Source of the DNA: an uncultured virus (IMG/VR IMGVR_UViG_3300035183_001031)
Taxonomy: Duplodnaviria; Heunggongvirae; Uroviricota; Caudoviricetes
Strand: one strand, 5' to 3'
DNA: 64,000 nt
Virus record (IMG/VR): IMGVR_UViG_3300035183_001031
Shown: in pieces, positions 1-14,156 of the stretch
Layout: every line of letters starts with the position of its first letter
How positions within the stretch are numbered: the first letter of the stretch is position 1
Translations under genes and position numbers: made by a program
Notes under the pieces: model-generated
Seen by the model: the letters and a program-made list of their open reading frames with translations, nothing else
Database searches by the model: none
Told to the model about the DNA's origin: nothing

Positions 1-60
1 GGTGCCTTAAGAGTGCCTTGGAGGTGCCTTGGTGCCTTAAGAGTGCCTTGGAGGTGCCTT
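1..60. repeat. 30-bp tandem duplication built from GTGCCTT motifs (degenerate copies continue to ~110)
   Basis: GGTGCCTTAAGAGTGCCTTGGAGGTGCCTT occurs at 1-30 and 31-60; may continue beyond the window edge. Confidence 0.85.
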
Positions 61-148
61 GCCTTGGAACAAGACTTGCCTTGGAGGTGTCTTGGGAAGG
101 GGCATCTTGAGGCAAACGTCTGGGCATGCCTCGAGGAGCGGCGGCCTT

Positions 149-454
149 TTATCCCAGACCCGAGTGCCTCCCACGGGCCATACCCCCTCGAGAATCCCGG
201 GAGAGATTTTCGCCAGGGTTCGTCGGCCGGGCCGCCAGATCATCTGAGCTGATCGTCGGCGGGAGGATCTCCTTCCCCATGGGGAGGCCTAGGTCGACCC
301 ACGTCAGTCTCCGCCAGACCAGCCGCCAGAAGGCCCGCCCCGGATCTCGCTCCCAGGCATGCTGCGGCCAGGTATGCATCCAGAACCAGGCCAGCCAGCC
401 GGCCACCGCGGCGAGGACATAGACCGCCCCGATGACGATGACGACGGCCCTCAT
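149..454 (-). CDS. hypothetical membrane protein
   Basis: ATG at 454; hydrophobic N-terminus AVVIVIGAVYVLAAVAGWLAWFW; ATGA overlap with upstream ORF. Confidence 0.55.
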   Translation of the reverse strand: MRAVVIVIGAVYVLAAVAGWLAWFWMHTWPQHAWERDPGRAFWRLVWRRLTWVDLGLPMGKEILPPTISSDDLAARPTNPGENLSRDSRGGMARGRHSGLG

Positions 455-705
455 CGCCAGGTCCTCCCGGCCCGTAGGCACTCGCGAAGCGTGACCACGA
501 TATCGCTATCTCGCATCATGGGGTCAAGCCGGTCGGTCAGGCACCTGTCGACCCGCTCGGACCGGTCCGCCGCCCTTCTCACCGCGTCCTCGACCCGGTT
601 CAGGCGGAGGTTGATGTCCTCAGGCCCGCCGTCCCGGCAGCCGAGGATGGCCCAGGCAAGGAGCAGGGTCGGCAGCCGGCTGCGCCCCGTCCGTCGATCC
701 TCCAT
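451..705 (-). CDS. hypothetical protein, possible lipoprotein
   Basis: MEDRRTGRSRLPTLLLAWAILGC: signal-like stretch ending in Cys; GGGAGA RBS-like sequence upstream. Confidence 0.5.
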   Translation of the reverse strand: MEDRRTGRSRLPTLLLAWAILGCRDGGPEDINLRLNRVEDAVRRAADRSERVDRCLTDRLDPMMRDSDIVVTLRECLRAGRTWR

Positions 706-773
706 CGTCTTCTCCCTTGTCGGCGACGGGTCCGAGACCCTGGCCGACGGCCGTCCGTCCCGCCGGCCCATCC

Positions 774-1322
774 TCAGACCGACCCCCTCGGCCTCTCCGG
801 CCAGCGTCCGGTCCAGAGCAAGGAGGAGTAGGCCGAGAGGTTGCTCGCCATCGTGCCCAGGTAGGCCTCCTCGAGCGTCGGGGCGACCGAGCGGACCATC
901 TTGATCCCCCGCAGCTCCACCCGGACCTCCTCGTCGAAGATCCGCCCGCGGTCGGCCTCGGAGAGGACCGTCCCGTCCATGCCGGCGAGGTTCCAGCGGA
1001 TGAGGGAGCGCCGGTACCGCTCGAACTCCTTGCCGCCCTCGAGGAGGCTGTGGGCGTGGCTCAGCTCGTGCGCCACCACGCACGCCTGGTACGTCATCTT
1101 GTCCCGGTCGTCCCGCGTGGGGAAGTCCTGCCCCGACGGGACCGTCCCGCTCCTGATGAGGATCCTGTTGCCGGACATGTCGTAGCCGCCCGCGATCCCA
1201 CGGGGAAGGTCGGCCGAGTACTGGACGCGGCAGACCCGCTCGGCGAGCCGCCAGATCTCACAGAGTTGGGCCCAGGCCTCATCGGCCTCCGACCCGGGGT
1301 CGTACGTGTGCATCGACGACAT
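774..1322 (-). CDS. zincin-type metallopeptidase-like protein
   Basis: VVAHELSH (HExxH) motif with downstream DEE; start trimmed to MSSMH behind GAAAGG RBS. Confidence 0.55.
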   Translation of the reverse strand: MSSMHTYDPGSEADEAWAQLCEIWRLAERVCRVQYSADLPRGIAGGYDMSGNRILIRSGTVPSGQDFPTRDDRDKMTYQACVVAHELSHAHSLLEGGKEFERYRRSLIRWNLAGMDGTVLSEADRGRIFDEEVRVELRGIKMVRSVAPTLEEAYLGTMASNLSAYSSLLWTGRWPERPRGSV

Positions 1323-1345
1323 CCTTTCATCCGGTCGACCTTCGC

Positions 1346-1540
1346 TCACGGCAATAGGCTCCTGAGGAACCTGAAGTCCTCCTGCGAGACCTCGCTTCCG
1401 TTGGCGAAGTACTTGACGATCGCCCTGTGCTTGTCGGCGTCTTCCTCGACGAAGACCTCGAGCGCCAACGCGCGGTTCGCATCGTTGGTGACGAGTCGAT
1501 AGACGCGATGGTAACCCGGGAGGACGCACTTCTCGATCAC
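1346..1540 (-). CDS. hypothetical protein
   Basis: GTG start overlaps the TGA of the pentapeptide gene; co-oriented. Confidence 0.5.
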   Translation of the reverse strand: MIEKCVLPGYHRVYRLVTNDANRALALEVFVEEDADKHRAIVKYFANGSEVSQEDFRFLRSLLP

Positions 1541-2307
1541 CACGGCAGGCACCACCTGCAGATGATCTTTCCCGCGACCGACTGCGTGTTCTTTTCCTCG
1601 AAGAGGCCGTCGCACCTATCGCAGCGGTACTCCCCTGGCGCACAGAGGCCGAGGACGCCCTCCGTCTTGGCCTCCGTGAGGCACGCGCCGGTCAGGTTCG
1701 CTCCCGTAAAATCGGCCCCGCATAGGTCCGCCCCTGTAAAGTCGGCCCCACGCAGGTCGGCGTCCCGAAAGTCCGCCCCGGATAGGTCGGCACCCGCGAA
1801 GTCGACGGCGCGACAATACGCATGCCGAAAGTCCGCATGACAGAGGCGGGCGGAGGCCAGGCAGGCGTCGGTGAGATAGGCGCGGCTGAACCATGCCGCC
1901 TTGAAGTCTCCCTCACGAAGCTGGGCATCCGCGAGGACGGCTCGCCCGAAATCTGCCTCCCTCCCGAGGGCCCCCGAGAGGTCAGCGCCGCCCAGGTGGG
2001 CGCTTGAGAAGTCGGCGCCGATGAGCTTGGCGCCGGCCAGCCGGAGCATCGGGGCGAAGATGTGTGCGACGCTGGCGGATACCAGGCTGGCACGCTCCAG
2101 GTTCGTGCCGAAGAGGCTCGCCTCGTCGAGGCAGGCGCGGTCGAGCACGATCCCCGCCAGGCGCCTCTCGTCGAGAGAGATGTGGCGCAGGTCGACCTCG
2201 TCAAGGGAGATGCACCTGGCGTAGGCATTGCAGATCGCCTCGGCGAGGCAGGTGGCCTTGGCGTCGCCGAGGATCACGTCGCCGTGACGGTTATAGACGT
2301 TGATCAT
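1537..2307 (-). CDS. pentapeptide repeat protein with C-terminal Cys cluster
   Basis: A(D/N)(L/F)xx repeats (ADLSGADFRDADLRGADFTG); CDRC...CRWC tail. Confidence 0.9.
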   Translation of the reverse strand: MINVYNRHGDVILGDAKATCLAEAICNAYARCISLDEVDLRHISLDERRLAGIVLDRACLDEASLFGTNLERASLVSASVAHIFAPMLRLAGAKLIGADFSSAHLGGADLSGALGREADFGRAVLADAQLREGDFKAAWFSRAYLTDACLASARLCHADFRHAYCRAVDFAGADLSGADFRDADLRGADFTGADLCGADFTGANLTGACLTEAKTEGVLGLCAPGEYRCDRCDGLFEEKNTQSVAGKIICRWCLPW

Positions 2308-2363
2308 GGCTCCAGGTCATCCTTGTGAGGGTCGTGGCGCGGCCAGGTCGATGATATCCGATC

Positions 2364-2753
2364 ATGGATTTGTCGACCTTCACGGACCAAACCGCCGTCG
2401 TCGTGACAGGCGATCCTCGGCCGACTGTCTTGTCGTTTACGTCCCTATGCATGTCAGCATCTTACCACGGCCGAAGGCGGTACTATGGCCGCATGCAGGA
2501 CAGACAGGAGCGTTTCATGGTTCGAACCTTTCGGATCGTCGCCGGCTCGTACGTGTACGAGAACAGGCTGGTCGAGGGTCGTCCGATGGCGGTCAGGCAG
2601 ATCGAGTCGGTCGGGGAGATCGACCGGGAGGACCACGACTTCATTCGAAGCTTCCTCGAGGGCGCGGACCTCGACGCGAAGATGGCCGAGGTCTGCGCCC
2701 GCGCCCACGGCGACGGAGCCCTCCACACCGCGAGGATCTTCCAGGTCGACTGA
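2364..2753 (+). CDS. hypothetical protein
   Basis: 129-aa ORF heading a + strand run. Confidence 0.55.
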   Translation: MDLSTFTDQTAVVVTGDPRPTVLSFTSLCMSASYHGRRRYYGRMQDRQERFMVRTFRIVAGSYVYENRLVEGRPMAVRQIESVGEIDREDHDFIRSFLEGADLDAKMAEVCARAHGDGALHTARIFQVD

Positions 2754-2765
2754 GGTACCTATCCG

Positions 2766-3284
2766 GTGCCGTCTGTAGGAGAGGCGTTTGGCTTCTTGGC
2801 CCAAGAGGGCCCTGGAATCTTCGGGACCTCTGTCGGCTCCATGCTCTACGTCGGTCACCGCAGGGATACCCATCCATGGTGGTATCAGACGTTCGCCCCG
2901 GCGATCGGAGCCTCCCGCATCGCGGTGATCGACGTCGACAGGAATAACCTGCTGACGGCCCGACACGTCACCTCGGAGCTCTACCACGGGGACATCCGCC
3001 AGAGCGACGTCCCCCACGGGTTCGGCCTCGTCTTCTGGGATGAGGGGCCCGAGCACCTGCCGCGGGAGGAGTCGCTGGAGCTCTGCAGGTACCTGGCGAG
3101 GAGGAACGCCCGGGTCCTCATCAGCTGCCCCTGGGGGTTCCAGGAGCAAGGTGAGGACCGGAACGATCCGGAGTTCCACCACTGGGGTCCTGTGCCCGAA
3201 GACTTCGCATCCATCGGATGGCAGACGCGGACGTTTGGGGTTAAGTTCCCGGACGGCCACGGAAACCTGATCGCCTGGAAGTAG
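2766..3284 (+). CDS. class I SAM-dependent methyltransferase-like protein
   Basis: MLYVG, VIDVD, GDIR, VFWDEGPEHL, LISCP follow the order of class I MTase motifs. Confidence 0.55.
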   Translation: MPSVGEAFGFLAQEGPGIFGTSVGSMLYVGHRRDTHPWWYQTFAPAIGASRIAVIDVDRNNLLTARHVTSELYHGDIRQSDVPHGFGLVFWDEGPEHLPREESLELCRYLARRNARVLISCPWGFQEQGEDRNDPEFHHWGPVPEDFASIGWQTRTFGVKFPDGHGNLIAWK

Positions 3285-3304
3285 GTTCCCTCCGCGGCCT
3301 AATT

Positions 3305-4420
3305 TTGAAGGCGATGCCGCGTCTCTACGAGTACTTCATGTTCGAGATGCCCAGGAGGAAGGGGGATCCCATCCTGGCGACCCTCGACTGGGCTGCCCAA
3401 CAGAGGGGCACCTTCACGATCAACGACCTGTACAACGTCTACGTCGCAAACGGGGGCCGGGCCAACAGCATGGGCGACAACAAGCAGTCGTTTTCGACGC
3501 AGATCAACAGGTACATCGCCAAGCCGTGGAAGGAGGACCAGGACAAGTACGGTGTCTCTGAGAAGAGGCCGCTCCTGGCCGTGAGGCGAGGAGCGCGCGG
3601 AGGGGGCGGCCGCAACCCGACCATCCTTCAATGGGGGCTCGACAGGCCACTTCGCGATCCTAGCGCAGCCCACTTCGTGGAGCCCGACGACGACAGCAGC
3701 ACCGGAGACGCGATGGATCGACTCGAGAAGGTCCTGAGCCGCATGGGCAAGGGTCTCCCGGACGACCCGAAGCAGGGACGACAGAGGCTCAAGGCCGCCA
3801 TCGAGCGCTGGAAGAAGATGAAGACCCTGAACCAGGTCGTGGCCGACATCAGGGGGACGATCCCGAAGGCTGGGCAGATGGACGCCCTCCATATCGCCTC
3901 CGAGTTCCTCATCGATCGGGGCGCGGCTGACGAGGACGACGTCGAAGACGCAGAGGACCAGGTCGCCCCGGCGCCCCCGGCCGTCTCTTCCCATGACGAC
4001 GACGATGACGTCGGCGAGTTCTCAGACGAGCCCGAGGACCTGGACACGATTCCAGACGAAGAGTACGACGAGGAGGAGTCCGAGGCGACTTCGGACGACG
4101 AGTACGACGAGGAGGAGCCCGAGGCGACTTCGGACGACGAGTACGACGAGGAGGAGCCGCCCTCGCCCCCTGTGAAGAGAACCATCGCCCCTCCGTCCTT
4201 CTCCAAGCCCGTCACCCCATCGGCCGGGCCCGGCGTGACAGTCCGAAAGAAGGAAGAGCCGCCGGCGGCGACGGCGCGGCCCGAGCCAGAAGACGACGAC
4301 GAGGAAGACATCGAGGAACCGACCAAGCGGCAGGCCGGCGCCGCAAACTTCATCAGACCGCAGGCGACCCCGGCGGCCCCGAAGAGTCCGCTCACGAAGT
4401 TCTTCAGACGAGGACGATGA
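3305..4420 (+). CDS. hypothetical protein with folded N-terminus and long acidic/Pro-rich disordered C-terminus
   Basis: 371-aa ORF; D/E-rich tail with 13-aa repeats; alternative ATG at 3314. Confidence 0.75.
   Translation: MKAMPRLYEYFMFEMPRRKGDPILATLDWAAQQRGTFTINDLYNVYVANGGRANSMGDNKQSFSTQINRYIAKPWKEDQDKYGVSEKRPLLAVRRGARGGGGRNPTILQWGLDRPLRDPSAAHFVEPDDDSSTGDAMDRLEKVLSRMGKGLPDDPKQGRQRLKAAIERWKKMKTLNQVVADIRGTIPKAGQMDALHIASEFLIDRGAADEDDVEDAEDQVAPAPPAVSSHDDDDDVGEFSDEPEDLDTIPDEEYDEEESEATSDDEYDEEEPEATSDDEYDEEEPPSPPVKRTIAPPSFSKPVTPSAGPGVTVRKKEEPPAATARPEPEDDDEEDIEEPTKRQAGAANFIRPQATPAAPKSPLTKFFRRGR
4055..4158 (+). repeat. 39-bp coding tandem repeat (~2.7 copies; DDEYDEEEPEATS)
   Basis: Units start at 4055, 4094 and 4133. 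Confidence 0.9.
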
Positions 4421-4935
4421 GCTGGTCTCCTGGGTCAGACCGGGAGTGGCGTCGGCTCGCCGTCCCACACATCGCAAAGCTCTGCACTCCGACATGGCCA
4501 GACTCGTATCGGGGCCACCTCGTTGAGATCTCCGAGTTCATGGTGGCCCGCGTCGAGGGCGCCCTGACGAAAGGAGGACAGATCAAGTGGTCTGAGTGCA
4601 GGGCCGACTGCGTCATCTACTTCGGCCGCGTCCCCCTTTGCGAGATCTCGGTCACCAACCCCGAGAGGGAAGCGCGGGCGGCCAAGGGCTATCCTCAGCT
4701 GAGGGCCCAGCTCGAAAGAGATCCCGGGTACGACGCTGTCCCCGTGGTGTTGAAGCGTCTGGGTGAACAGTTCACCGTCTGGGACGGACACCATCGTCTA
4801 AGGACATATCGTCAGGCGCAGAGACAGGACATCCCTTCTCTTGTCGCCTGGATCGTCCCGGGTGACGGAAAGGTTAGGCTGCTGAGACAGCAGCATCCAG
4901 GGACGTCTGCTGGCCTGGGAACGGGATCCCTCTAG
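4417..4935 (+). CDS. ParB/sulfiredoxin N-terminal domain protein
   Basis: PVVLKRLGEQFTVWDGHHRLRTY matches the ParB/Srx DGHHR motif. Confidence 0.7.
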   Translation: MSWSPGSDREWRRLAVPHIAKLCTPTWPDSYRGHLVEISEFMVARVEGALTKGGQIKWSECRADCVIYFGRVPLCEISVTNPEREARAAKGYPQLRAQLERDPGYDAVPVVLKRLGEQFTVWDGHHRLRTYRQAQRQDIPSLVAWIVPGDGKVRLLRQQHPGTSAGLGTGSL

Positions 4936-4955
4936 GTCCCCTCCGACCAGTGCCA

Positions 4956-5147
4956 TCAAGGCGGGTCTGAATCGCCTCGTTGATTCATCCTCAGCCCCTC
5001 TCCATCGACGACCTCCCAATCCTCCGCAAGGAGGTCTGACCTGACCACGTTGTAGAGATGGTTCGGTATCTCGCTGACGCAGAGTATCCTCTTGTTACCC
5101 TTGCGTCGGATCCACCTCCCAGCCCTTATTGCGTCCAAAAAGGTCAC
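4956..5147 (-). CDS. short DUF2829/Tad2-like protein
   Basis: MTFLDAIRAGRWIRRKG...SDLLAEDWEVV resembles the conserved ends of the family. Confidence 0.55.
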   Translation of the reverse strand: MTFLDAIRAGRWIRRKGNKRILCVSEIPNHLYNVVRSDLLAEDWEVVDGEGLRMNQRGDSDPP

Positions 5148-5174
5148 CCAAACATTCTACCACTATGGCCGATG

Positions 5175-5203
5175 TTGACGTGTGCCGCCAAACGTATTAT
5201 AAT
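5175..5203 (+). promoter_or_regulatory. sigma70-type promoter
   Basis: TTGACG (5175-5180), 17-bp spacer, TATAAT (5198-5203), upstream of the 5255-8598 gene run. Confidence 0.8.
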
Positions 5204-5254
5204 GGATTTGGCGGTATAACTGCCATCAACAACGTAGAGTGGAAAGTCAAGCCA

Positions 5255-5578
5255 ATGCAAGTCATCAATCCCATGAGTGACGAGAGGTTCGACGCTGTGT
5301 GCGAGGCCGGCGTGGAACTGGTGAAGAAGCTCCGCCTGGTCCTCATCGCGAATGGGCTCGCCTCCGAGGAGGCGGTGAGCGTTCTGGCGATGGCGGTCGG
5401 CGGCGTGATCAAGGGGACAGACATCGAGCCAGAGCAGTTCATGCGGGCCGCGTACATGTCATTCCAAATGTGGCGTCAGGAGGAGGGGATCGACGGCATC
5501 GAGGGCCTGGTGTTCGATCCCCCGCACAAGCGTCCGGGCTTCATCCCGGTGGCACGCGATCCGTCCATGGAGAACTAG
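5255..5578 (+). CDS. hypothetical protein
   Basis: First plausible ATG downstream of the promoter (MQVINPMSDERF). Confidence 0.65.
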   Translation: MQVINPMSDERFDAVCEAGVELVKKLRLVLIANGLASEEAVSVLAMAVGGVIKGTDIEPEQFMRAAYMSFQMWRQEEGIDGIEGLVFDPPHKRPGFIPVARDPSMEN

Positions 5579-5579
5579 T

Positions 5580-5918
5580 GTGACCCTCAGAGGAGACGAG
5601 GTCCAGAAGATTCAGGTGTCTGCTGACAGCCCTGAGGCGCTGGATCGGGTCCAACGTTCGATCATCATGGTCGTCCGGGCCGCGCTCGACCGGCTTGAGG
5701 CGCTTGGGTACGAGCGCGGCTCAAGGCCTGGTAAGGGGATCGAGATTGACGTCGCTGACGACGGCCTCCCGATCCTCGTTAAACTGGGCAGAGAGGTCGT
5801 CTTCTCCGTCCAGGAGAAGGTCGACCACCGCGGGAGACTGACGATCTCCGGCGAGTGGCAGAAGGACGTCCAGCCTCGAAAACCAAACCTCTGGCGACGC
5901 ATCTTCCGGAGGAAGTGA
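5580..5918 (+). CDS. hypothetical protein
   Basis: 112-aa ORF tightly coupled to both neighbours. Confidence 0.65.
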   Translation: MTLRGDEVQKIQVSADSPEALDRVQRSIIMVVRAALDRLEALGYERGSRPGKGIEIDVADDGLPILVKLGREVVFSVQEKVDHRGRLTISGEWQKDVQPRKPNLWRRIFRRK

Positions 5919-6742
5919 TGCCAGAGTTGCCTGAGGTTGACGCCATCACAGGTGTCGTACGAAAGTACGCCAGGGGCAACTCGATCGTCGACTTTGAGAT
6001 CGTCCGCTGGAACGGAAGGTATTTTGACGGACCAGATGGACCTTTGATCGGACCCAAGCAGTGCGGTGGAAGATGGGATGTTGACGATGTGTTCCGCCTT
6101 GGGAAACGGATCGTCTTCCGGATCCTGTCACCTCGACCGCTTTACCTGATCGCACACAACGCGATGACCGGGTACTTCGATTGGGAACATGAGCCGTGGA
6201 CCTTCGATTACGTCGAGGCTGATCGCGAACCGGACCGGAATGACATCCGGGTAAAGATCCGCTTTGGCGACGGAAAGGTACTTCAGTTCCATGACGTCCG
6301 TCTCTTCGGGAGCATGAAGGTCGTGTCAGAACTTCCTACGGCTCCTCCTGAGCTGCTCTCGACCCCGAATGGGATGCCAAGCCATCCCGTGATGAGTCCG
6401 AGCGAGTTCTATGAGGGACTCAAGGTCAAGACGCCGATTAAGGTCCGGCTGATGGACCAGCGGTTCATCGGAGGCATCGGTAACATCTACTCGGTCGAGG
6501 CGCTTCACGCGGCAGGCATCCACCCGAGCGCCAGGTCCAACCGACTATCCTCGGAGGAGGCCCGTGTACTTCACGCCGCCCTGATTTGGTCTGTGGATCA
6601 CTCCATCCCCCAGGTCAGGTACGACTGGCTGAATGTGTATAGACGTGCCTCCTGCGGGACGTGTGGGCTTCCTGTGAAGCGGTACATACTCTGTGGCCGT
6701 GCCACCTTTGTCTGCGAGGGTTGCCAACCCAATGATGGTTGA
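5918..6742 (+). CDS. mutM: Fpg/Nei family DNA glycosylase/AP lyase
   Basis: MPELPEV N-terminus, RLGK, H2TH motif LMDQRFIGGIGNIYSVEALH, zinc finger CGTCG...GRATFVCEGCQ. Confidence 0.92.
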   Translation: MPELPEVDAITGVVRKYARGNSIVDFEIVRWNGRYFDGPDGPLIGPKQCGGRWDVDDVFRLGKRIVFRILSPRPLYLIAHNAMTGYFDWEHEPWTFDYVEADREPDRNDIRVKIRFGDGKVLQFHDVRLFGSMKVVSELPTAPPELLSTPNGMPSHPVMSPSEFYEGLKVKTPIKVRLMDQRFIGGIGNIYSVEALHAAGIHPSARSNRLSSEEARVLHAALIWSVDHSIPQVRYDWLNVYRRASCGTCGLPVKRYILCGRATFVCEGCQPNDG

Positions 6743-9291: not shown

Positions 9292-9825
9292 GTGATCGAG
9301 AAGAAGTGGAAGACGCTTGCTGGCGAAGAGGTCGACCTACGGTCGTCCATCGAAGCAGTGCTTCGTGAATTTCCAGATGCAGAACTAACGATCGCCTCCG
9401 ACTCGCAACAGAGAGGTCAACACACCGAATATGTTACTGTCGTGACGTTGATTCGCCCAGGTAAGGGTGGTCGGGTCATCTTCAACCGCGAACTTATCCC
9501 GAGGGTCAGAGAACTGAGAGAGAGGCTTTGGAAGGAGACGTGGCGCTCTACCGAGCTAGCCGCGGAGCTGACCGAGACTCCAGACATCGGAGATAGGATG
9601 AAGATCAACGTCGACGCGATCCACATCGACGTAAACGTCGATCCGAAACATCGGTCATCGAGATATGTGGAAGAGCTGGTCGGCCTTGTGATCGGACAGG
9701 GCTTCAATGCAGTTGTGAAGCCAAAGGCATGGGCGGCGTCACACGCGGCCGACCACGCGGTGAAGCACAAAGAGGAAAGGAAGAAACCGCATGCGGAGAA
9801 CAACGGTCGACGTCTAGTAAGCTGA
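9292..9825 (+). CDS. RNase H-like YkuK (DUF458) family protein
   Basis: IASDSQ, PGKGG, RERLWKE...S, IHIDVN, KPKAWAASHAADH. Confidence 0.85.
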   Translation: MIEKKWKTLAGEEVDLRSSIEAVLREFPDAELTIASDSQQRGQHTEYVTVVTLIRPGKGGRVIFNRELIPRVRELRERLWKETWRSTELAAELTETPDIGDRMKINVDAIHIDVNVDPKHRSSRYVEELVGLVIGQGFNAVVKPKAWAASHAADHAVKHKEERKKPHAENNGRRLVS

Positions 9826-9869
9826 CCACCGTTAAAAAGACAAAGAAGTATTCTTCTTGCTATCAATTT

Positions 9870-9953
9870 GGGTCGTTAAGCTGGACGGGTTCCAGCGCCG
9901 GTCTTGAAAATCGGTTAGGACGAAAGTCAGAGGTTCGAATCCTCAACGACCCG
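9870..9953 (+). tRNA. tRNA-Ser(UGA) with 8/4 fold
   Basis: 8-bp acceptor GGGTCGTT/AACGACCC, CCGGT-CTTGAAA-ATCGG anticodon arm, V-arm GAC-GAAA-GTC, 4-bp T stem GAGG/CCTC, G discriminator. Confidence 0.88.
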
Positions 9954-10016
9954 CAGAACTTTGAAAATAGAATAGACCGTGCATCTCTTTTATAGAGGGT
10001 GATCTCTATCCTCTTC

Positions 10017-10098
10017 GCGTGGATGACGGAACGGTAGACGTGGGGAGCTTAAACCTCCCCGATTGATCATCGTGTGGGTTCGACTCCCACTCCACGTA
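10017..10098 (+). tRNA. tRNA-Leu(UAA)
   Basis: GCGTGGA/TCCACGT, GGGAG-CTTAAAC-CTCCC, long V-arm, GTGGG-TTCGACT-CCCAC. Confidence 0.9.
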
Positions 10099-10116
10099 CA
10101 GATGTCAATATCCCAG

Positions 10117-10201
10117 GGGTCTGTGGTGTCAAAGGCTGACCACCCGACTTTTAATCGGGGGACATTGCGTCCATATGCAGGTTCGAGTCCTGCCAGACCC
10201 A
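10117..10201 (+). tRNA. tRNA-Lys(UUU) with long variable arm
   Basis: GGGTCTG/CAGACCC, CCCGA-CTTTTAA-TCGGG, V stem GGAC/GTCC, GCAGG-TTCGAGT-CCTGC. Confidence 0.85.
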
Positions 10202-10207
10202 CTTAAC

Positions 10208-10277
10208 GCCCGTATAGCTCAAAAGTAGAGCCCTGGCTTGTACCCAGGAGGTTGTGGATTCGTACCCACTACGGGCT
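10208..10277 (+). tRNA. tRNA-Thr(UGU), atypical or degenerate
   Basis: GCCCGTA/TACGGGC, GCTC/GAGC D stem lacking the D-loop GG, CCTGG-CTTGTAC-CCAGG, irregular T arm. Confidence 0.7.
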
Positions 10278-10404
10278 CTAACTCTTAATAATGTGTACCA
10301 AACAGTTGACAGATCATAATCCGCTACCACTCATATTTCCCATCTGCTGATGATGATGATGTTTTCAAGGCGGAGACTTCAGAGAAAGATTTCCAAACCC
10401 TCAA

Positions 10405-10480
10405 CGAGATGAGGCCGACATGGTGAGGCGCACGCTTTGGGAGCGTGAGGCAGCAGGTTCGATTCCTGCCATCTCGACCA
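10405..10480 (+). tRNA. tRNA-Pro(UGG)
   Basis: CGAGATG/CATCTCG, CACGC-TTTGGGA-GCGTG, canonical T arm, encoded CCA. Confidence 0.92.
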
Positions 10481-10483
10481 TAT

Positions 10484-10551
10484 ACACCGGGGGCTGGGCC
10501 CTGGGAGGACTCCAAATCCTCCCTTCCTGAGTTCGATTCTCAGACAGTGTG
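10484..10551 (+). tRNA. tRNA-Trp(CCA), atypical (minimal D arm, mismatched acceptor)
   Basis: GAGGA-CTCCAAA-TCCTC, CTGAG-TTCGATT-CTCAG, D hairpin GGGC-TGG-GCCC. Confidence 0.65.
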
Positions 10552-10576
10552 CTAACGAACGCACAATACAGTTTAC

Positions 10577-10650
10577 CGGTGTTCCCAGCGGGGAGGTAGC
10601 ATGATACTCGAGACCGCCAGGCGGTTCGAACTCCGAGCGCACACCGACCA
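10577..10650 (+). ncRNA. tRNA-like element with encoded ACCA, anticodon not assignable
   Basis: CGGTGT/ACACCG acceptor, GGTTCGAA T-loop-like motif, ends in ACCA. Confidence 0.5.
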
Positions 10651-10777
10651 CTTCTGAGCAAACCGAAAGAACGCGATGATCTTGGTTGAGGCAGCAGATG
10701 GTATGATACGGAATGTTGCTTAAGATATACGATTTGTATCAAATCATACGGAATAATCGCTTAAGGACAAATCTAAA

Positions 10778-10863
10778 GCTTCCGTAGCTCTCGGTAGAGC
10801 AGGCGGGTTTATACCCCGTGGCCAGATGGGCGCCCGGTCAGAGTTCGACTCTCTGCGGAAGCA
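10778..10863 (+). tRNA. tRNA-Ile(UAU) with long variable region
   Basis: GCTTCCG/CGGAAGC, GCTC/GAGC, GCGGG-TTTATAC-CCCGT, CAGAG-TTCGACT-CTCTG. Confidence 0.82.
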
Positions 10864-10933
10864 CGATTAGGCCACTTCAGCGGCAAATGCTCATTTTGCT
10901 GCGTTATTATTGTGCTCAACCTCGACACGACTT

Positions 10934-11010
10934 GCCACTGTATCCCCTCAGTTTCCTAAGCTGTAGAAAGGGTAGTCGGATTCACGCAGGTTCGAGTCCT
11001 GCCAGTGGCG
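10934..11010 (+). tRNA. non-canonical D-arm-less tRNA-Arg(CCU)-like RNA
   Basis: Perfect acceptor GCCACTG/CAGTGGC and T arm GCAGG-TTCGAGT-CCTGC; CAGT-TTCCTAA-GCTG hairpin nested in CCCT/AGGG. Confidence 0.65.
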
Positions 11011-11045
11011 CTTTCTAACACGGAATATCTTCGGATAATCCGTCA

Positions 11046-11120
11046 TGCGGTGAGGATGTTAGCATTTCCAATCCGGGCTCATAACCCGCGACTACGTCGG
11101 TGCAATTCCGACCACCGCGA
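11046..11120 (+). tRNA. tRNA-Met(CAU), initiator-like, atypical D arm
   Basis: GCGGTG/CACCGC with weak 1:72 pair, CGGG-CTCATAA-CCCG (three G-C pairs), GTCGG-TGCAATT-CCGAC. Confidence 0.75.
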
Positions 11121-11163
11121 CAAATGAACACACCCAGCGATCCGTTCTCGTGTTTTCAAACGA

Positions 11164-11379
11164 TCAATTACCGACGTCAGAGGACCACTTCTTGATCTCG
11201 GTCTTAAGGTCATGGGTCATCTCCCGAAGATCGGCCCACTGTCGATCGCCTTCAACTTCTCGAACTGTCCCGTCGGATAACTCCCTTACGGAGATTGGAA
11301 TGGATACGATCGGATCGTGTTCAACTTGTAGCTCGTACTCGTTACCGTTACAGGCAGTAAAGAAGATGATGGATTGCAT
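11164..11379 (-). CDS. hypothetical protein
   Basis: 71 aa; AGGA RBS-like sequence upstream. Confidence 0.5.
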   Translation of the reverse strand: MQSIIFFTACNGNEYELQVEHDPIVSIPISVRELSDGTVREVEGDRQWADLREMTHDLKTEIKKWSSDVGN

Positions 11380-11450
11380 ATCATCCTATCCTATCACGAT
11401 CATGTGGTATGACGACGAGTGCACCCGAAAGAGCTACCATACGTACCATA

Positions 11451-11924
11451 ATGCCGAAGAAGAGCAACTTCGAGGGTGAGGGCAATCCATCTGAGCCCCA
11501 GCCACAACGCAAGACCATCGAGGCCTACCTGGTCCCGGTAGAAATCGACGATGACTCCGTGTGCCTTGAGGTGACCCCCGTAGAACGGGACGTCCTCAGG
11601 AAGCTACTCGGTTGGGACAGTACCTCAGGAAAAGTCAACGGCGGTTTGAAGTCGTTACTGTCATTCTCGGATGCCGAAGCAGCCGTCCTCCTCGGATTCC
11701 TCAAGAGGATCCCGCGACGTAAGACCGTCGAGGGCTATCTATTCCCAGTAGAAATCGACGATGAATCCGTACACCTTGAGGTAACCTCCGCAGAACGTGA
11801 CGTCCTCAGGAAGCTACTCGATCGGGACCGTACCTCAAGAGAGGTCCACGGTGGTCTGAAGTCGTTACTATCGTTCTCGGATGTTGAGGCAGCCGCCCTC
11901 CTCGGATTCCTCAAGAGAATCTAA
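11451..11924 (+). CDS. hypothetical protein made of two tandem 70-aa repeats
   Basis: RKTIEAYLVPVEIDD...LLGFLKRI duplicated with a 210-bp period. Confidence 0.65.
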   Translation: MPKKSNFEGEGNPSEPQPQRKTIEAYLVPVEIDDDSVCLEVTPVERDVLRKLLGWDSTSGKVNGGLKSLLSFSDAEAAVLLGFLKRIPRRKTVEGYLFPVEIDDESVHLEVTSAERDVLRKLLDRDRTSREVHGGLKSLLSFSDVEAAALLGFLKRI

Positions 11925-11933
11925 GACCTTCTC

Positions 11934-12014
11934 ACCTCAACGCCCGTCTGACATTCTAAGTCATTGAAACGGTGATTAGATAACACGCAGGTTCGACTCC
12001 TGTCAGAGGTGCCA
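11934..12014 (+). tRNA. non-canonical D-arm-less tRNA-Arg(UCU)-like RNA, 5' end degenerate
   Basis: TGAC-ATTCTAA-GTCA nested in CCGT/ACGG; GCAGG-TTCGACT-CCTGT; ends GAGGT-GCCA. Confidence 0.55.
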
Positions 12015-12022
12015 CTTATCCC

Positions 12023-12472
12023 GTGCGGTACCAGGAGAGACCATGGTCGTGCGGTCCCGCGGCGCTGAGGTCGGCGGGGTTGGTCCTTGGACAAAAGGTC
12101 TCTGAGCGGACCATCCGTGCCAAGGCAGGGACCACTGAAGACGGGACGGACGAGGAGGAGCTCATCCAGGCCGCACGGCAGCTCGGTTGGACCGCCACAC
12201 CGCACCATTCCGCAGACACAGCGGCAGCGTGGGCCTTCGTCCGGGCCAACGTCCTAGACGGAAGGCCGGTCGTGCTCTGTCTCGACCAGTGGACCCACTG
12301 GGTCACTGTCATCGGAATCGTAGGAGACAAGGTCATCTACTTCGACCCTGCGCGGACCAAGAAGAACATGGACGAGAACGGTCTCACCGTGGCATCCCGG
12401 ACGAACCTCTCCAAGCGCTGGAGGTGCCCGAGTGAATCGAAGCCCTTCTACGCCATCGCAATTGGGAAGTAA
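12023..12472 (+). CDS. C39-like cysteine peptidase
   Basis: YQERPWSCGPAAL, GT..EEL, HWVTVIG, YFDP (Q-C-H-D residues). Confidence 0.85.
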   Translation: MRYQERPWSCGPAALRSAGLVLGQKVSERTIRAKAGTTEDGTDEEELIQAARQLGWTATPHHSADTAAAWAFVRANVLDGRPVVLCLDQWTHWVTVIGIVGDKVIYFDPARTKKNMDENGLTVASRTNLSKRWRCPSESKPFYAIAIGK

Positions 12473-12951: not shown

Positions 12952-13263
12952 ATGCCGACTGAGAATGACAAGACAAAAGCGTCAGCCGATGTCAAGGTTT
13001 CTGAAACGAGGACCCGAGACGAGGCAAAGGAGTTAAAGATCGAGAATGCCAAGCTCAGGAGTGATCTTGAGATGGCCAATGAGCGGATCGTCGCCCTCGA
13101 ACAGAAGCTCAAGGAGATTCCTTCAGGAATGGACTATGCCTTCCTAAACGGAAGGATCTATCAGATCGCTGGTGTCGTGGAGGCGAGATTCGCCACCGAT
13201 GAAGCCCGTAAGGGACACCTTCCGAACGGTCTTGAGACAGAGCTGATTATTCTGAAGCCATAG
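12952..13263 (+). CDS. hypothetical coiled-coil protein
   Basis: ELKIENAKLRSDLEMANERIVALEQKL heptads. Confidence 0.65.
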   Translation: MPTENDKTKASADVKVSETRTRDEAKELKIENAKLRSDLEMANERIVALEQKLKEIPSGMDYAFLNGRIYQIAGVVEARFATDEARKGHLPNGLETELIILKP

Positions 13264-14156
13264 TGTCCAAGCGGATACATCTTCCGCTCTACGGGCAGCT
13301 AAGGGATAGGGTCTCATTCTCTGAGCTAAGGCTCTTCCATGAATGCTCGTGGAGGTGGTTCATCCAGAACGTCCAGGGACACAAGGTAGAAGAACGGTCG
13401 TTCCAGATGGACTTCGGAAGGGCAGTTCACTCTGGGATGGAGGTCCTTTACGGACCTGAGGGGACCGTCGAGAAGGCATCGAAACATGCCCTCGAGATGT
13501 ACGATGAGGCATTGAAGACACTAGACCTCACCCATCCCTCAGATAGAGCCGAGGCTCATCGGATCAGGGACTGCATCCCGAAGTTCTATGCAGACTGCAT
13601 GGAGTGTGAGGAGCTGAAGGGGATCACGACCCTCAAGTCCGAACTGATGCTCCTTGAACCGATCCTCAGGACCGACGGTCTTCAGATCAACTTTAAGGGA
13701 TTCATCGACATCGTCTTCGTCAAGAAGCTCAAGCGGAAGACCGTGATCTATATCGCGGATTTCAAGACCTGTCAGTGGGGATGGCCTGCGAAGAAGTTTC
13801 AGGACATCGAGGTAATCTCCCAGCTTCTCCTGTACAAGCACTTCTTCTGCAAGATGACCGGAGCGGATCCGAAGAACGTCAGCCTCGCGTTCATTCTCCT
13901 CAAGAAGAAGCCGAGGGAAGGAGATCTTTCTGTTGAAGTGGTCAAGGTCAGTGCAGGACCGAAGGCCATCGAGAGGGCCCTAGATTATCTGCAGAAAACG
14001 ATTACGGCGATGCACTCGTATTCATACGAGCAGAACTTTGCAGCCTGCGTTCGCTCATGGATCGATAAGGACACAAAGGAGAAAAGATCTACAAAGTGTC
14101 CTTGGATGGGCACCGAACTCTGTCCAGGGTCTGCGGAAGTCACCGCAGGTAGTTAG
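13263..14156 (+). CDS. PD-(D/E)xK nuclease (RecB/Cas4-like)
   Basis: SFS..C, GRAVH, KGFIDIV...IADFKT, QLLLY, C-terminal C...CPW...C. Confidence 0.85.
   Translation: MSKRIHLPLYGQLRDRVSFSELRLFHECSWRWFIQNVQGHKVEERSFQMDFGRAVHSGMEVLYGPEGTVEKASKHALEMYDEALKTLDLTHPSDRAEAHRIRDCIPKFYADCMECEELKGITTLKSELMLLEPILRTDGLQINFKGFIDIVFVKKLKRKTVIYIADFKTCQWGWPAKKFQDIEVISQLLLYKHFFCKMTGADPKNVSLAFILLKKKPREGDLSVEVVKVSAGPKAIERALDYLQKTITAMHSYSYEQNFAACVRSWIDKDTKEKRSTKCPWMGTELCPGSAEVTAGS

Follow-up and report, generated by a model that had tools for sequence, protein, structure and literature searches.

In a canonical transfer RNA (tRNA) the strand formed by positions 22-31 runs unbroken through the D stem and the anticodon stem and is faced by positions 39-44, a break and positions 10-13; strand 39-44 is stacked end to end on 10-13, and U8 stacks next to the 13-22 pair. 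Circularly permuted tRNA genes are known from the red alga Cyanidioschyzon merolae; maturation there restores the usual order, so that the finished tRNA is canonical. D-armless mitochondrial tRNAs are described (PMC7609411, PMC11551756) as truncated molecules without the contact between G18G19 and the T loop and with a flexible or Y-shaped form. A synthetic tRNA without a D arm, 'mini HisT', is used by evolved Escherichia coli, and it shows that a bacterial synthetase, EF-Tu and the ribosome can accept a tRNA without a D hairpin (PMC11551756). In this study we analysed a stretch of 64,000 nucleotides (nt) of DNA from an uncultured virus of the Caudoviricetes (IMG/VR record IMGVR_UViG_3300035183_001031), hereafter called the window, in which two tRNA-like genes without a D hairpin, copy 1 and copy 2, lie close together. 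Our analysis suggests, with a probability of roughly 0.7, that copy 1 is a phage arginine tRNA gene reading AGG, that it belongs to a widespread class of non-cloverleaf tRNAs (Arg, Ile and a few CAU or Val members) in which the 5' strand of the D stem and the D loop have moved to the variable region, that it would be charged by the host and serve phage translation, and that copy 2 is its diverged duplicate.

An earlier note, made from the letters of the window alone, had described the two elements and their lack of a D hairpin, and the sequence reads as claimed there: anticodon hairpins, a TAGAA or TTGAA bulge and a D-loop-like string after the anticodon are present in both copies (Table 1). 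In copy 1 the outer pairing CCC(C)T/AGGG nests the anticodon hairpin inside it, the TAGAA bulge leads into TAGTCGGA, and the string after the bulge, TAGTCGGAT, resembles the D loop of tRNA-Arg; a D hairpin is absent. The parts of copy 2 are CCGT/ACGG, a TGAC/GTCA stem, the loop ATTCTAA (TCT) and TTGAA, followed by TGATTAGA. The outer helix proposed in the note is real and covaries among the relatives described below, at a length of 3 base pairs (bp; 10944-10946 with 10970-10972 in copy 1) and not the 4 bp proposed, the supposed fourth pair being an invariant C.A or, if the C is bulged, U15-A36 (alignment columns). ARAGORN was expected to return a pseudo or undetermined call; in its bacterial and mitochondrial modes it called neither copy at all in a scan of the window. 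The Rfam tRNA model RF00005 matched copy 1 at 31.2 bits (gathering cut-off 29) under lax filters only, with no match in the default scan, and the resulting alignment deleted the D arm (15 model positions) and inserted 18 nt in the variable region. Copy 1 shows 0 deviations at the 28 family columns that are conserved in at least 95% of members, and it is a textbook member of the rewired class.

Relatives were collected with covariance models and with DNA search patterns taken from the 3' half common to both copies. A model built from the two window copies (R1), as the note had advised, found no third copy within the 64-kb window with filters off, and gave full-length homologues in related phages of about 200 kb, namely L004 (anticodon CCU, directly after tRNA-Ile(UAU)), L007 (UCU) and L021 (UCU). 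A pattern with the loop fixed as NCUAA identified 24 viral loci, and a pattern without the anticodon identified 39 (33 true and 6 chance matches). When the base after GG was also freed, at least 119 viral loci were found, of which 115 were true and 4 were chance matches. A pairing check (at least three outer-helix, four anticodon-stem, at least six acceptor-stem and at least four T-stem pairs) accepted 106 of these loci as structure-consistent; nine more resembled the family but had one weaker helix or lay at a contig edge, and in none of these nine was the outer helix the reason for rejection. An initial DNA pattern, which was too stringent, returned no loci, as did a search for loci related through two single neighbouring proteins, and blastn revealed no close relatives of 9800-12100 among GenBank phages. 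Metagenomes and viral contigs, together with cultured phages and a few bacterial assemblies, supplied the 131 distinct relatives of the final alignment, which was made with MAFFT and was not fitted to a model.

A second covariance model (R2) was built from 45 relatives outside the window. Its scores were 85.9 bits for copy 1 (E 8e-22) and 49.4 bits for copy 2 (E 3e-11), compared with 79.7-98.7 bits for standard members, 63.9-66.9 bits for three shorter variants and at most 31.3 bits for the ordinary tRNAs of the same loci. Since R2 was built without the window and yet scores both copies far above ordinary tRNAs, their resemblance to the family is not due to chance. Bacterial and archaeal assemblies (one genome per species) gave 102 matches, and five true loci were found among the 80 examined, one of them in an isolate of Achromobacter anxifer; all except L140 sit in tRNA arrays, and the reading as a core cellular gene was rejected on these figures. 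Among 121 genomes of the family to which the Achromobacter carrier belongs, none but the carrier matched, so the gene is sporadic there and not a core cellular tRNA. An ARAGORN call of tRNA-Arg(cct) at L118 (661-751, 91 nt) resembles a weak false positive and was set aside.

Analysis of the 131 relatives revealed a common fold. The 7-bp acceptor stem leads through U8-A9-U into an outer helix of 3 bp, which surrounds an anticodon stem of 4 bp; next come a WGAA bulge, the D-loop-like string U-A-R-Y-Y-G-G-N and a T arm of normal type. The claim that this is a selected class and not a product of decay held up, as the plan is kept in all 131 distinct sequences with compensatory changes. Pairing was observed in 98.3% of the cells of the alignment, compared with 66.3% after shuffling (0 of 500 shuffles reached the observed value) and 38-50% with slid partners, and changes on both sides occurred in 19 of 21 pairs. 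The acceptor stem is 97.6% paired with all seven pairs compensated, the anticodon stem is 100% paired with all four pairs changed on both sides, and the T arm is 97.9% paired, both window copies having a 5-bp stem and a 7-nt U-U-C-R-A-N-Y loop. For the outer helix, whose 5' strand was never part of any search pattern, pair 12-38 is CG in 81 members, UA in 29 and GC in 20; pair 13-37 is CG in 102, GC in 26 and AU and UA in one each; and pair 11-39 is CG in 129 and AU in one. These combine into at least six compensated forms (CCC/GGG 70, CUC/GAG 29, CGG/CCG 17, CCG/CGG 9, CGC/GCG 2, plus singles). RNAalifold predicted the same four helices unaided. Variant outer helices were also found, with 4 bp (CGGC/GCCG) and a 2-nt bulge in L118 and L146, and with 5 bp (CCUAU/AUAGG) and a 10-nt bulge in Vibrio phage 184E37.3a. 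Only 3-4 nt separate the acceptor stem from the outer helix, leaving the D hairpin missing. The anticodon loop has 7 nt, and position 37 (column 25) is A in 131 of 131 sequences. Of 42 rows compared at loop position 33, where U is near-universal, three carry C, all of them UCU members (L021:2905-2982, L080:269-345 and L148:1298-1374; loops CCUCUAA and CCUCUAC).

The relocated string retains the features expected of a D loop, and the proposal that D-loop function lies in the variable region is supported by its GG, by a Levitt-type covariation and by an identity base at the equivalent of position 20. Besides U8 (Table 1), the A14-like base (129 of 131) and the two G residues (130 and 131 of 131; the GG is set by the search patterns) are near-invariant. 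The R15-like base in column 42 and the base in column 53, immediately 5' of the T stem, combine as A-U in 100 rows, G-C in 25, G-U in two and otherwise in four. The G-C form occurs in Ile, Arg and CAU members, and column 53 was never in a pattern. Judged by this distribution, the covariation is the signature of the Levitt pair 15-48.

Comparison of anticodons with the base after GG, which would occupy the structural place of position 20, was made in the 91 rows in which that base had been left free (here and for the anticodon counts below, among the matches listed). With Arg anticodons the base is A in 10 of 10 rows, and with Ile, CAU or Val anticodons it is U in 81 of 81; A was also found in 46 of 46 Arg-anticodon members. 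In the same 91 rows the discriminator is A in 69 of 69 Ile and 11 of 11 CAU members and G or A in 10 of 10 Arg members, and the discriminators of the 46 Arg-type members are G in 28, A in 12, U in five and C in one. The window copies combine CCU (copy 1) and UCU (copy 2) with discriminator G. The published bacterial identity sets, as given in Table 1 of PMC9976931, are A20, C35, U/G36 and A/G73 for Arg and U20, U21, A35, U36 and A73 for Ile. At the level of sequence, the position-20-like base and the discriminator match these sets.

The anticodons of the 90 distinct sequences from the free-base search were UAU (64), CAU (11), GAU (4), Arg (10) and Val (1). The name Arg tRNA-like class, used in the earlier note, thus fits the two window copies, which carry Arg anticodons, and does not fit the class, which is mostly Ile in this search. 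A class restricted to Arg was considered and rejected: the first two patterns fixed A after GG or the loop CTAA and returned 46 Arg members of 47, whereas the freed pattern returned mostly Ile. The Val anticodon UAC appeared in two members (L060:269-346 and L235:89-165), one with A and the other with U after GG. Every anticodon found on the rewired scaffold is one served by a class Ia synthetase (Arg, Ile, Val and Met/Ile2).

The following arrangement is proposed for the folded RNA. Canonical positions 10-21, that is, the 5' D-stem strand and the D loop, would have been transposed from before the anticodon arm into the variable region, giving the order acceptor strand and U8-A9; 3' D-stem strand straight into the anticodon stem; loop, return strand and GAA bulge; 5' D-stem strand, D loop and a connector of 3-4 nt; and T arm. 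In copy 1, U8-A9 would run into the equivalent of 22-25 (10943-10946) and on into the anticodon stem. The return strand would pass the WGAA bulge into the equivalent of 10-13 (10970-10973) and then the D loop (10974-10981), and a C-A-Y connector would close with the equivalent of position 48 (10985) just 5' of the T stem. Because strands that are stacking neighbours in the canonical molecule are joined in the rewired RNA, the same stacked D/anticodon helix could be rebuilt. The rebuilt core would consist of a D/anticodon helix of about ten layers, the same number as in an ordinary tRNA (four anticodon pairs, U15.N31, C14.A36, three Watson-Crick pairs and U10.U40), the elbow formed by G18G19 and the T loop, and the 15-48 Levitt pair, and we infer that the RNA adopts the normal L-shaped fold. 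Host arginyl- or isoleucyl-tRNA synthetase would then read A20 or U20 in the relocated loop, position 35 and the discriminator, and the charged tRNA would serve translation of phage genes.

The class is widespread in phages and mostly unannotated. Its cultured carriers include phages of Streptomyces, Microbacterium, Vibrio and Bacteroides. An Ile-type member searched with blastn matched 80 GenBank phage records, comprising 77 Streptomyces phages (BE type, about 130 kb), one crAss-like Kehishuvirus of Bacteroides and two others. Among the 40 matches listed, 38 have no annotated feature at the site, and two, both EGole records, are annotated as tRNA-Leu. An Arg-type member matched 44 GenBank phage records (Vibrio 24, Streptomyces 15, Microbacterium 3 and two others), again mostly unannotated. 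The rewired Ile(GAU) gene of Streptomyces phage Jay2Jay (L313, KM652554, about 75237-75313) occupies a 130-nt gap between two protein genes, and the member in Kehishuvirus occupies the sole gap in a dense tRNA array. In Streptomyces phage Mildred21 (L315, MF155946, 91367-91442) the gene is annotated as tRNA-Phe(gaa), yet its loop CUUCGAA gives UCG (Arg). The Jay2Jay gene lies directly downstream of gp110, which is annotated as a nucleotidyltransferase and may be a CCA-adding enzyme. ARAGORN called one member in a set of 47 and two in a set of 93, in each case with incorrect ends or an incorrect identity, and 10 of 20 relatives reached the RF00005 cut-off, at 30.3-36.5 bits compared with 46.9-66.7 bits for neighbouring ordinary tRNAs. 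Because ARAGORN misses nearly all of the rewired genes and GenBank mostly omits or misnames them, counts of phage tRNAs and analyses of codon supply are off for the rare codons of Arg and Ile.

Several observations are consistent with use of these genes as tRNAs. The CCA end is encoded directly 3' of the discriminator in 25 of 47 members, and another tRNA lies within 400 nt in 27 of 47. Comparison of Arg genes within 20-kb stretches round the rewired genes of three large viral records revealed ordinary CCG and ACG with rewired CCU, UCG and UCU in tandem (G002); ordinary ACG, CCG and UCU with rewired CCU and Ile-UAU (G004, complete with terminal repeats); and ordinary ACG with rewired UCU (G005). 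In these three, and likewise in L148, the rewired genes supply anticodons that nearby ordinary genes do not cover. Strict non-redundancy of anticodons was rejected as a rule, as Microbacterium phage Zooman (rewired gene at about 89187-89260) has ACG twice. The slot after tRNA-Ile(UAU) holds the rewired Arg(CCU) gene in the window and in L004 and an ordinary cloverleaf Arg(CCU) gene in L019 and L015, indicating that the rewired and the ordinary gene replace each other within one phage family. AGG is the commonest Arg codon of the window (301 of 925 Arg codons in 33 open reading frames), which fits a need for a CCU reader.

The two copies are not equivalent. They share one plan, but their conservation is unequal: copy 2 deviates at 8 of the 28 conserved columns (U8C, A9G, U10C, C14U, U15C, A14-like base to G, G18-like base to A and one inserted base), the deviant bases lying at 11941-11948, 11974 and 11978, and its R2 score is far below those of all standard members. 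Its encoded CCA and weaker acceptor stem, both noted earlier, were found as described, with 5 of 7 acceptor pairs formed and mismatches A.A and A.C at pairs 6-72 and 7-71. The Levitt-type position is A.C, and RF00005 gave no tRNA match to copy 2 at E up to 10. Copy 2 retains a T arm that is intact and a 4-bp anticodon stem that pairs perfectly; its outer helix survives in a compensated form (CCG/CGG), and the A20-like base, discriminator G and CCA are likewise kept. Copy 2 is probably a diverged paralogue of the same design, weakened or inactive as a tRNA, and it may have acquired a new role.

A number of points weigh against reading these genes as working tRNAs of one rewired class. The anticodon stem has just 4 Watson-Crick pairs and not 5, and the adjoining layer may be U15 with N31, U15-A36 or C14 with A36, a choice that the alignment does not permit since these bases are invariant. 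Several core bases are missing in copy 2, and the Kehishuvirus copy forms only 5 of 7 acceptor pairs. In Zooman an annotated ordinary Arg(ACG) gene stands beside the rewired ACG gene, which amounts to redundancy. No RNA runs were listed as containing 9800-12100, a stretch contained in two microbial-mat metagenome DNA runs. Members were found by window-derived patterns, through which columns 33-36, 39-42 (partly) and 45-46, the T loop (GGTTC.A) and the GG were imposed and divergent forms were under-sampled, and the covariation counts ignore kinship.

Among the other explanations, a tRNA mimic or decoy deserves the most weight, although we consider it unlikely. Such an RNA would be made and folded but would act outside translation. 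It would soak up or misdirect a host enzyme that targets tRNAs, be it an anticodon nuclease or an enzyme of modification or quality control, or it would serve a phage protein. A fold unlike that of every host tRNA, combined with anticodon loops that stay close to genuine Arg and Ile loops, agrees with this explanation, as do anticodons centred on the rare-codon readers UAU, UCU and CCU and the redundant anticodon of Zooman beside an ordinary copy. A decoy has no need, however, for a position-20 base and a discriminator that switch with the anticodon (A in 10/10 Arg and U in 81/81 Ile, CAU and Val members; discriminator A in 80/80 Ile and CAU members) or for the CCA encoded in 25/47 members; nor would it be expected to supply anticodons missing from the nearby array in G002, G004, G005 and L148, or to replace ordinary tRNA-Arg(CCU) in the same genomic slot, as the copy 1 type does. 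For the anticodon-nuclease decoy raised in the earlier note in particular, no direct evidence was found, and the coupling of identity bases with the anticodon and the encoded CCA fit chargeable tRNAs better.

Decay of ordinary tRNA-Arg genes into drifting pseudo-tRNAs that have lost the D arm is very improbable. What agrees with it comes from copy 2, with its 8/28 deviations, its two acceptor mismatches, its changed G18-like, A14-like and U8 bases, its A.C at the Levitt-type pair and an R2 score of 49.4 bits against at least 79.7 for standard members. Decay cannot yield 98.3% pairing and four compensated helices in 131 distinct sequences of many phage lineages, nor can it yield the identity coupling, and even copy 2 keeps the outer helix, the anticodon stem, the T arm, the A20-like base, discriminator G and CCA. 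A reordering undone at the RNA level, by cutting and rejoining or by removal of an intron-like insert to give an ordinary cloverleaf, has a precedent in the permuted red-alga tRNA genes that mature to normal tRNAs. It is hardly credible here. Return to the canonical order would take two cuts and two ligations in an RNA of 77 nt, and the sequence shows neither a bulge-helix-bulge nor any other splice motif. Covariation is seen in the helices that the transcript forms without rearrangement, and at 77 nt without CCA the RNA has no surplus to lose. A phage tRNA-Arg with a relocated D loop thus remains our preferred reading of copy 1.

Relative to a 68-kb viral record of IMG/VR the window is in reverse-complement orientation, and it encodes tail and baseplate-like genes. 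The nuclease gene near the copies (Table 1) has more than 170 homologues, many of them on contigs of 180-215 kb, which places the window in a family of phages of about 200 kb. Between the copies lies a cloverleaf resembling tRNA-Met(CAU), with a D loop lacking GG and a T loop TGCAATT, which was missed by ARAGORN in default mode and by Rfam. The order Ile(UAU), Arg(CCU), Met(CAU) in L019 is the same as that in the window, and the cloverleaf is syntenic with the tRNA-Met(CAU) of L019. According to ARAGORN, the upstream tRNA-Lys(UUU) and tRNA-Ile(UAU) genes carry variable-region insertions of 14 and 16 nt; the insertion in tRNA-Lys folds to a 4-bp hairpin, and long variable arms are unusual for Lys and Ile tRNAs. 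The Ile(UAU) gene is also long in L004 (91 nt) and L015 (92 nt) and has 75 nt in L019. The tRNA-Ser(UGA) gene scored higher with the selenocysteine-tRNA model (41.8 bits, below the cut-off of 47) than with the general tRNA model (36.2 bits). The open reading frame that ends 9 nt before copy 2 encodes 171 amino acids in two tandem repeats of about 80 amino acids (...VPVEIDD.SV.LEVT..ERDVLRKLL...GGLKSLLSFSD.EAA.LLGFLKRI) and has no Pfam match. The G+C content is 67% at the left end of the window (1-6000), where genes for a pentapeptide-repeat protein and for base-excision repair enzymes (Fpg-like and HhH-GPD) lie, and 50-58% in the remainder. Transfer-messenger RNA genes adjoin the tRNA arrays in related large phage contigs (L020:1674-2348 and L192:16351-16727).

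Table 1. Positions in the window of the two rewired tRNA-like genes, the parts of copy 1 and neighbouring features.
Feature	Position	Strand	Description
Copy 1, putative rewired tRNA-Arg(CCU) gene	10934..11010	+	77 nt with discriminator G; followed by CTT, CCA not encoded
Copy 1, acceptor stem 5' strand	10934..10940	+	GCCACTG, with CAGTGGC 11003-11009; 7/7 Watson-Crick; discriminator G 11010
Copy 1, U8-A9-U10 connector	10941..10943	+	Family: U8 130/131, A9 130/131, U10 127/131; columns never set by search patterns
Copy 1, outer helix 5' strand	10944..10946	+	CCC, pairs with GGG 10970-10972; read as D-stem equivalent (23-25 with 10-12)
Copy 1, anticodon hairpin	10949..10963	+	4-bp stem CAGT/GCTG, loop TTCCTAA, anticodon CCT 10955-10957
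Copy 1, bulge T-A-G-A-A plus A36	10964..10969	+	Family consensus N-W-G-A-A-A; G33, A34, A35 and A36 in at least 129/131, columns set by search patterns
Copy 1, outer helix 3' strand, D-loop-like string and connector	10970..10985	+	GGG, T, AGTCGGAT, TCAC; G 10975 and C 10985 read as Levitt-type pair; A 10980 read as position-20 equivalent
Copy 1, T arm	10986..11002	+	GCAGG, TTCGAGT, CCTGC; from sequence, Rfam alignment and family alignment
Copy 2, diverged rewired tRNA-Arg(UCU)-like gene	11934..12014	+	Encoded CCA 12012-12014; anticodon TCT 11955-11957; outer helix CCG 11944-11946 with CGG 11970-11972
Seven ordinary tRNA genes	9870..10864	+	Ser-UGA, Leu-UAA, Lys-UUU, Thr-UGU, Pro-UGG, Trp-CCA, Ile-UAU; ARAGORN and Rfam; directly upstream of copy 1
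tRNA-Ser(UGA)	9870..9954	+	
tRNA-Lys(UUU)	10117..10202	+	86 nt
tRNA-Ile(UAU)	10778..10864	+	87 nt
tRNA-Met(CAU)-like cloverleaf	11046..11121	+	Between copies 1 and 2; called only by ARAGORN -mt -ps
Open reading frame	11409..11924		Tandem repeats
PD-(D/E)XK nuclease	13263..14156		

A broader proposal, which in our estimate could equally well hold or fail, is that phages carry a natural permuted tRNA fold that would be the first non-cloverleaf class of elongator tRNA outside organelles, with the 5' D-stem strand and D loop in the variable loop and with the L core and identity kept, selected, at a guess, because it could still be charged and yet would evade host enzymes that bind at the normal D arm (for example tRNA-targeting defence nucleases or enzymes of modification and quality control). 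If these RNAs work as tRNAs, the cloverleaf would not be the sole secondary structure of bacterial translation in nature, and the same three-dimensional core could be reached from another order of strands. Such a natural experiment would inform work on how tRNAs fold, on how RNase P, the synthetases, EF-Tu and the ribosome recognize them, and on how orthogonal tRNAs can be designed. The cultured carriers make these claims accessible to direct bench tests.

Compared with canonical bacterial and phage tRNA-Arg and tRNA-Ile (RF00005), the phage class shares the 7-bp acceptor stem, the 5-bp T stem with a UUCRANY loop, the 7-nt anticodon loop with mostly U33 and with A37, the D-loop sequence A-R-Y-Y-G-G-A/U, U8, the Levitt-type R/Y pair and the identity bases, as well as a similar length, a location in phage tRNA arrays and an often encoded CCA. 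It differs in having no D hairpin, the D-stem equivalent enclosing the anticodon arm and the D loop following it, in its 4-bp anticodon stem, and in a WGAA bulge and C-A-Y connector in place of the variable loop. With the permuted tRNA genes of C. merolae it has in common tRNA segments in a non-canonical gene order; unlike in that system, the covarying helices of the phage class are those of the genomic order. No description of the rewired fold was found in full-text searches, whose scope did not extend to subscription journals or bioRxiv supplements, so an earlier description may exist; the word 'phage' does not occur in a 2020 review of non-canonical tRNAs (PMC7609411). The lack of a D hairpin is shared with D-armless mitochondrial tRNAs such as mammalian tRNA-Ser(AGY) and nematode tRNA-Ser, which are still used as tRNAs (PMC7609411). 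Mini HisT is man-made and 62 nt long, has its D arm deleted and not relocated, and needs a pnp mutation for stability (PMC11551756). In contrast to the mitochondrial forms, the phage RNA is of full length (77 nt) and keeps the D-loop sequence, the GG, a canonical T loop and the Levitt-type covariation.

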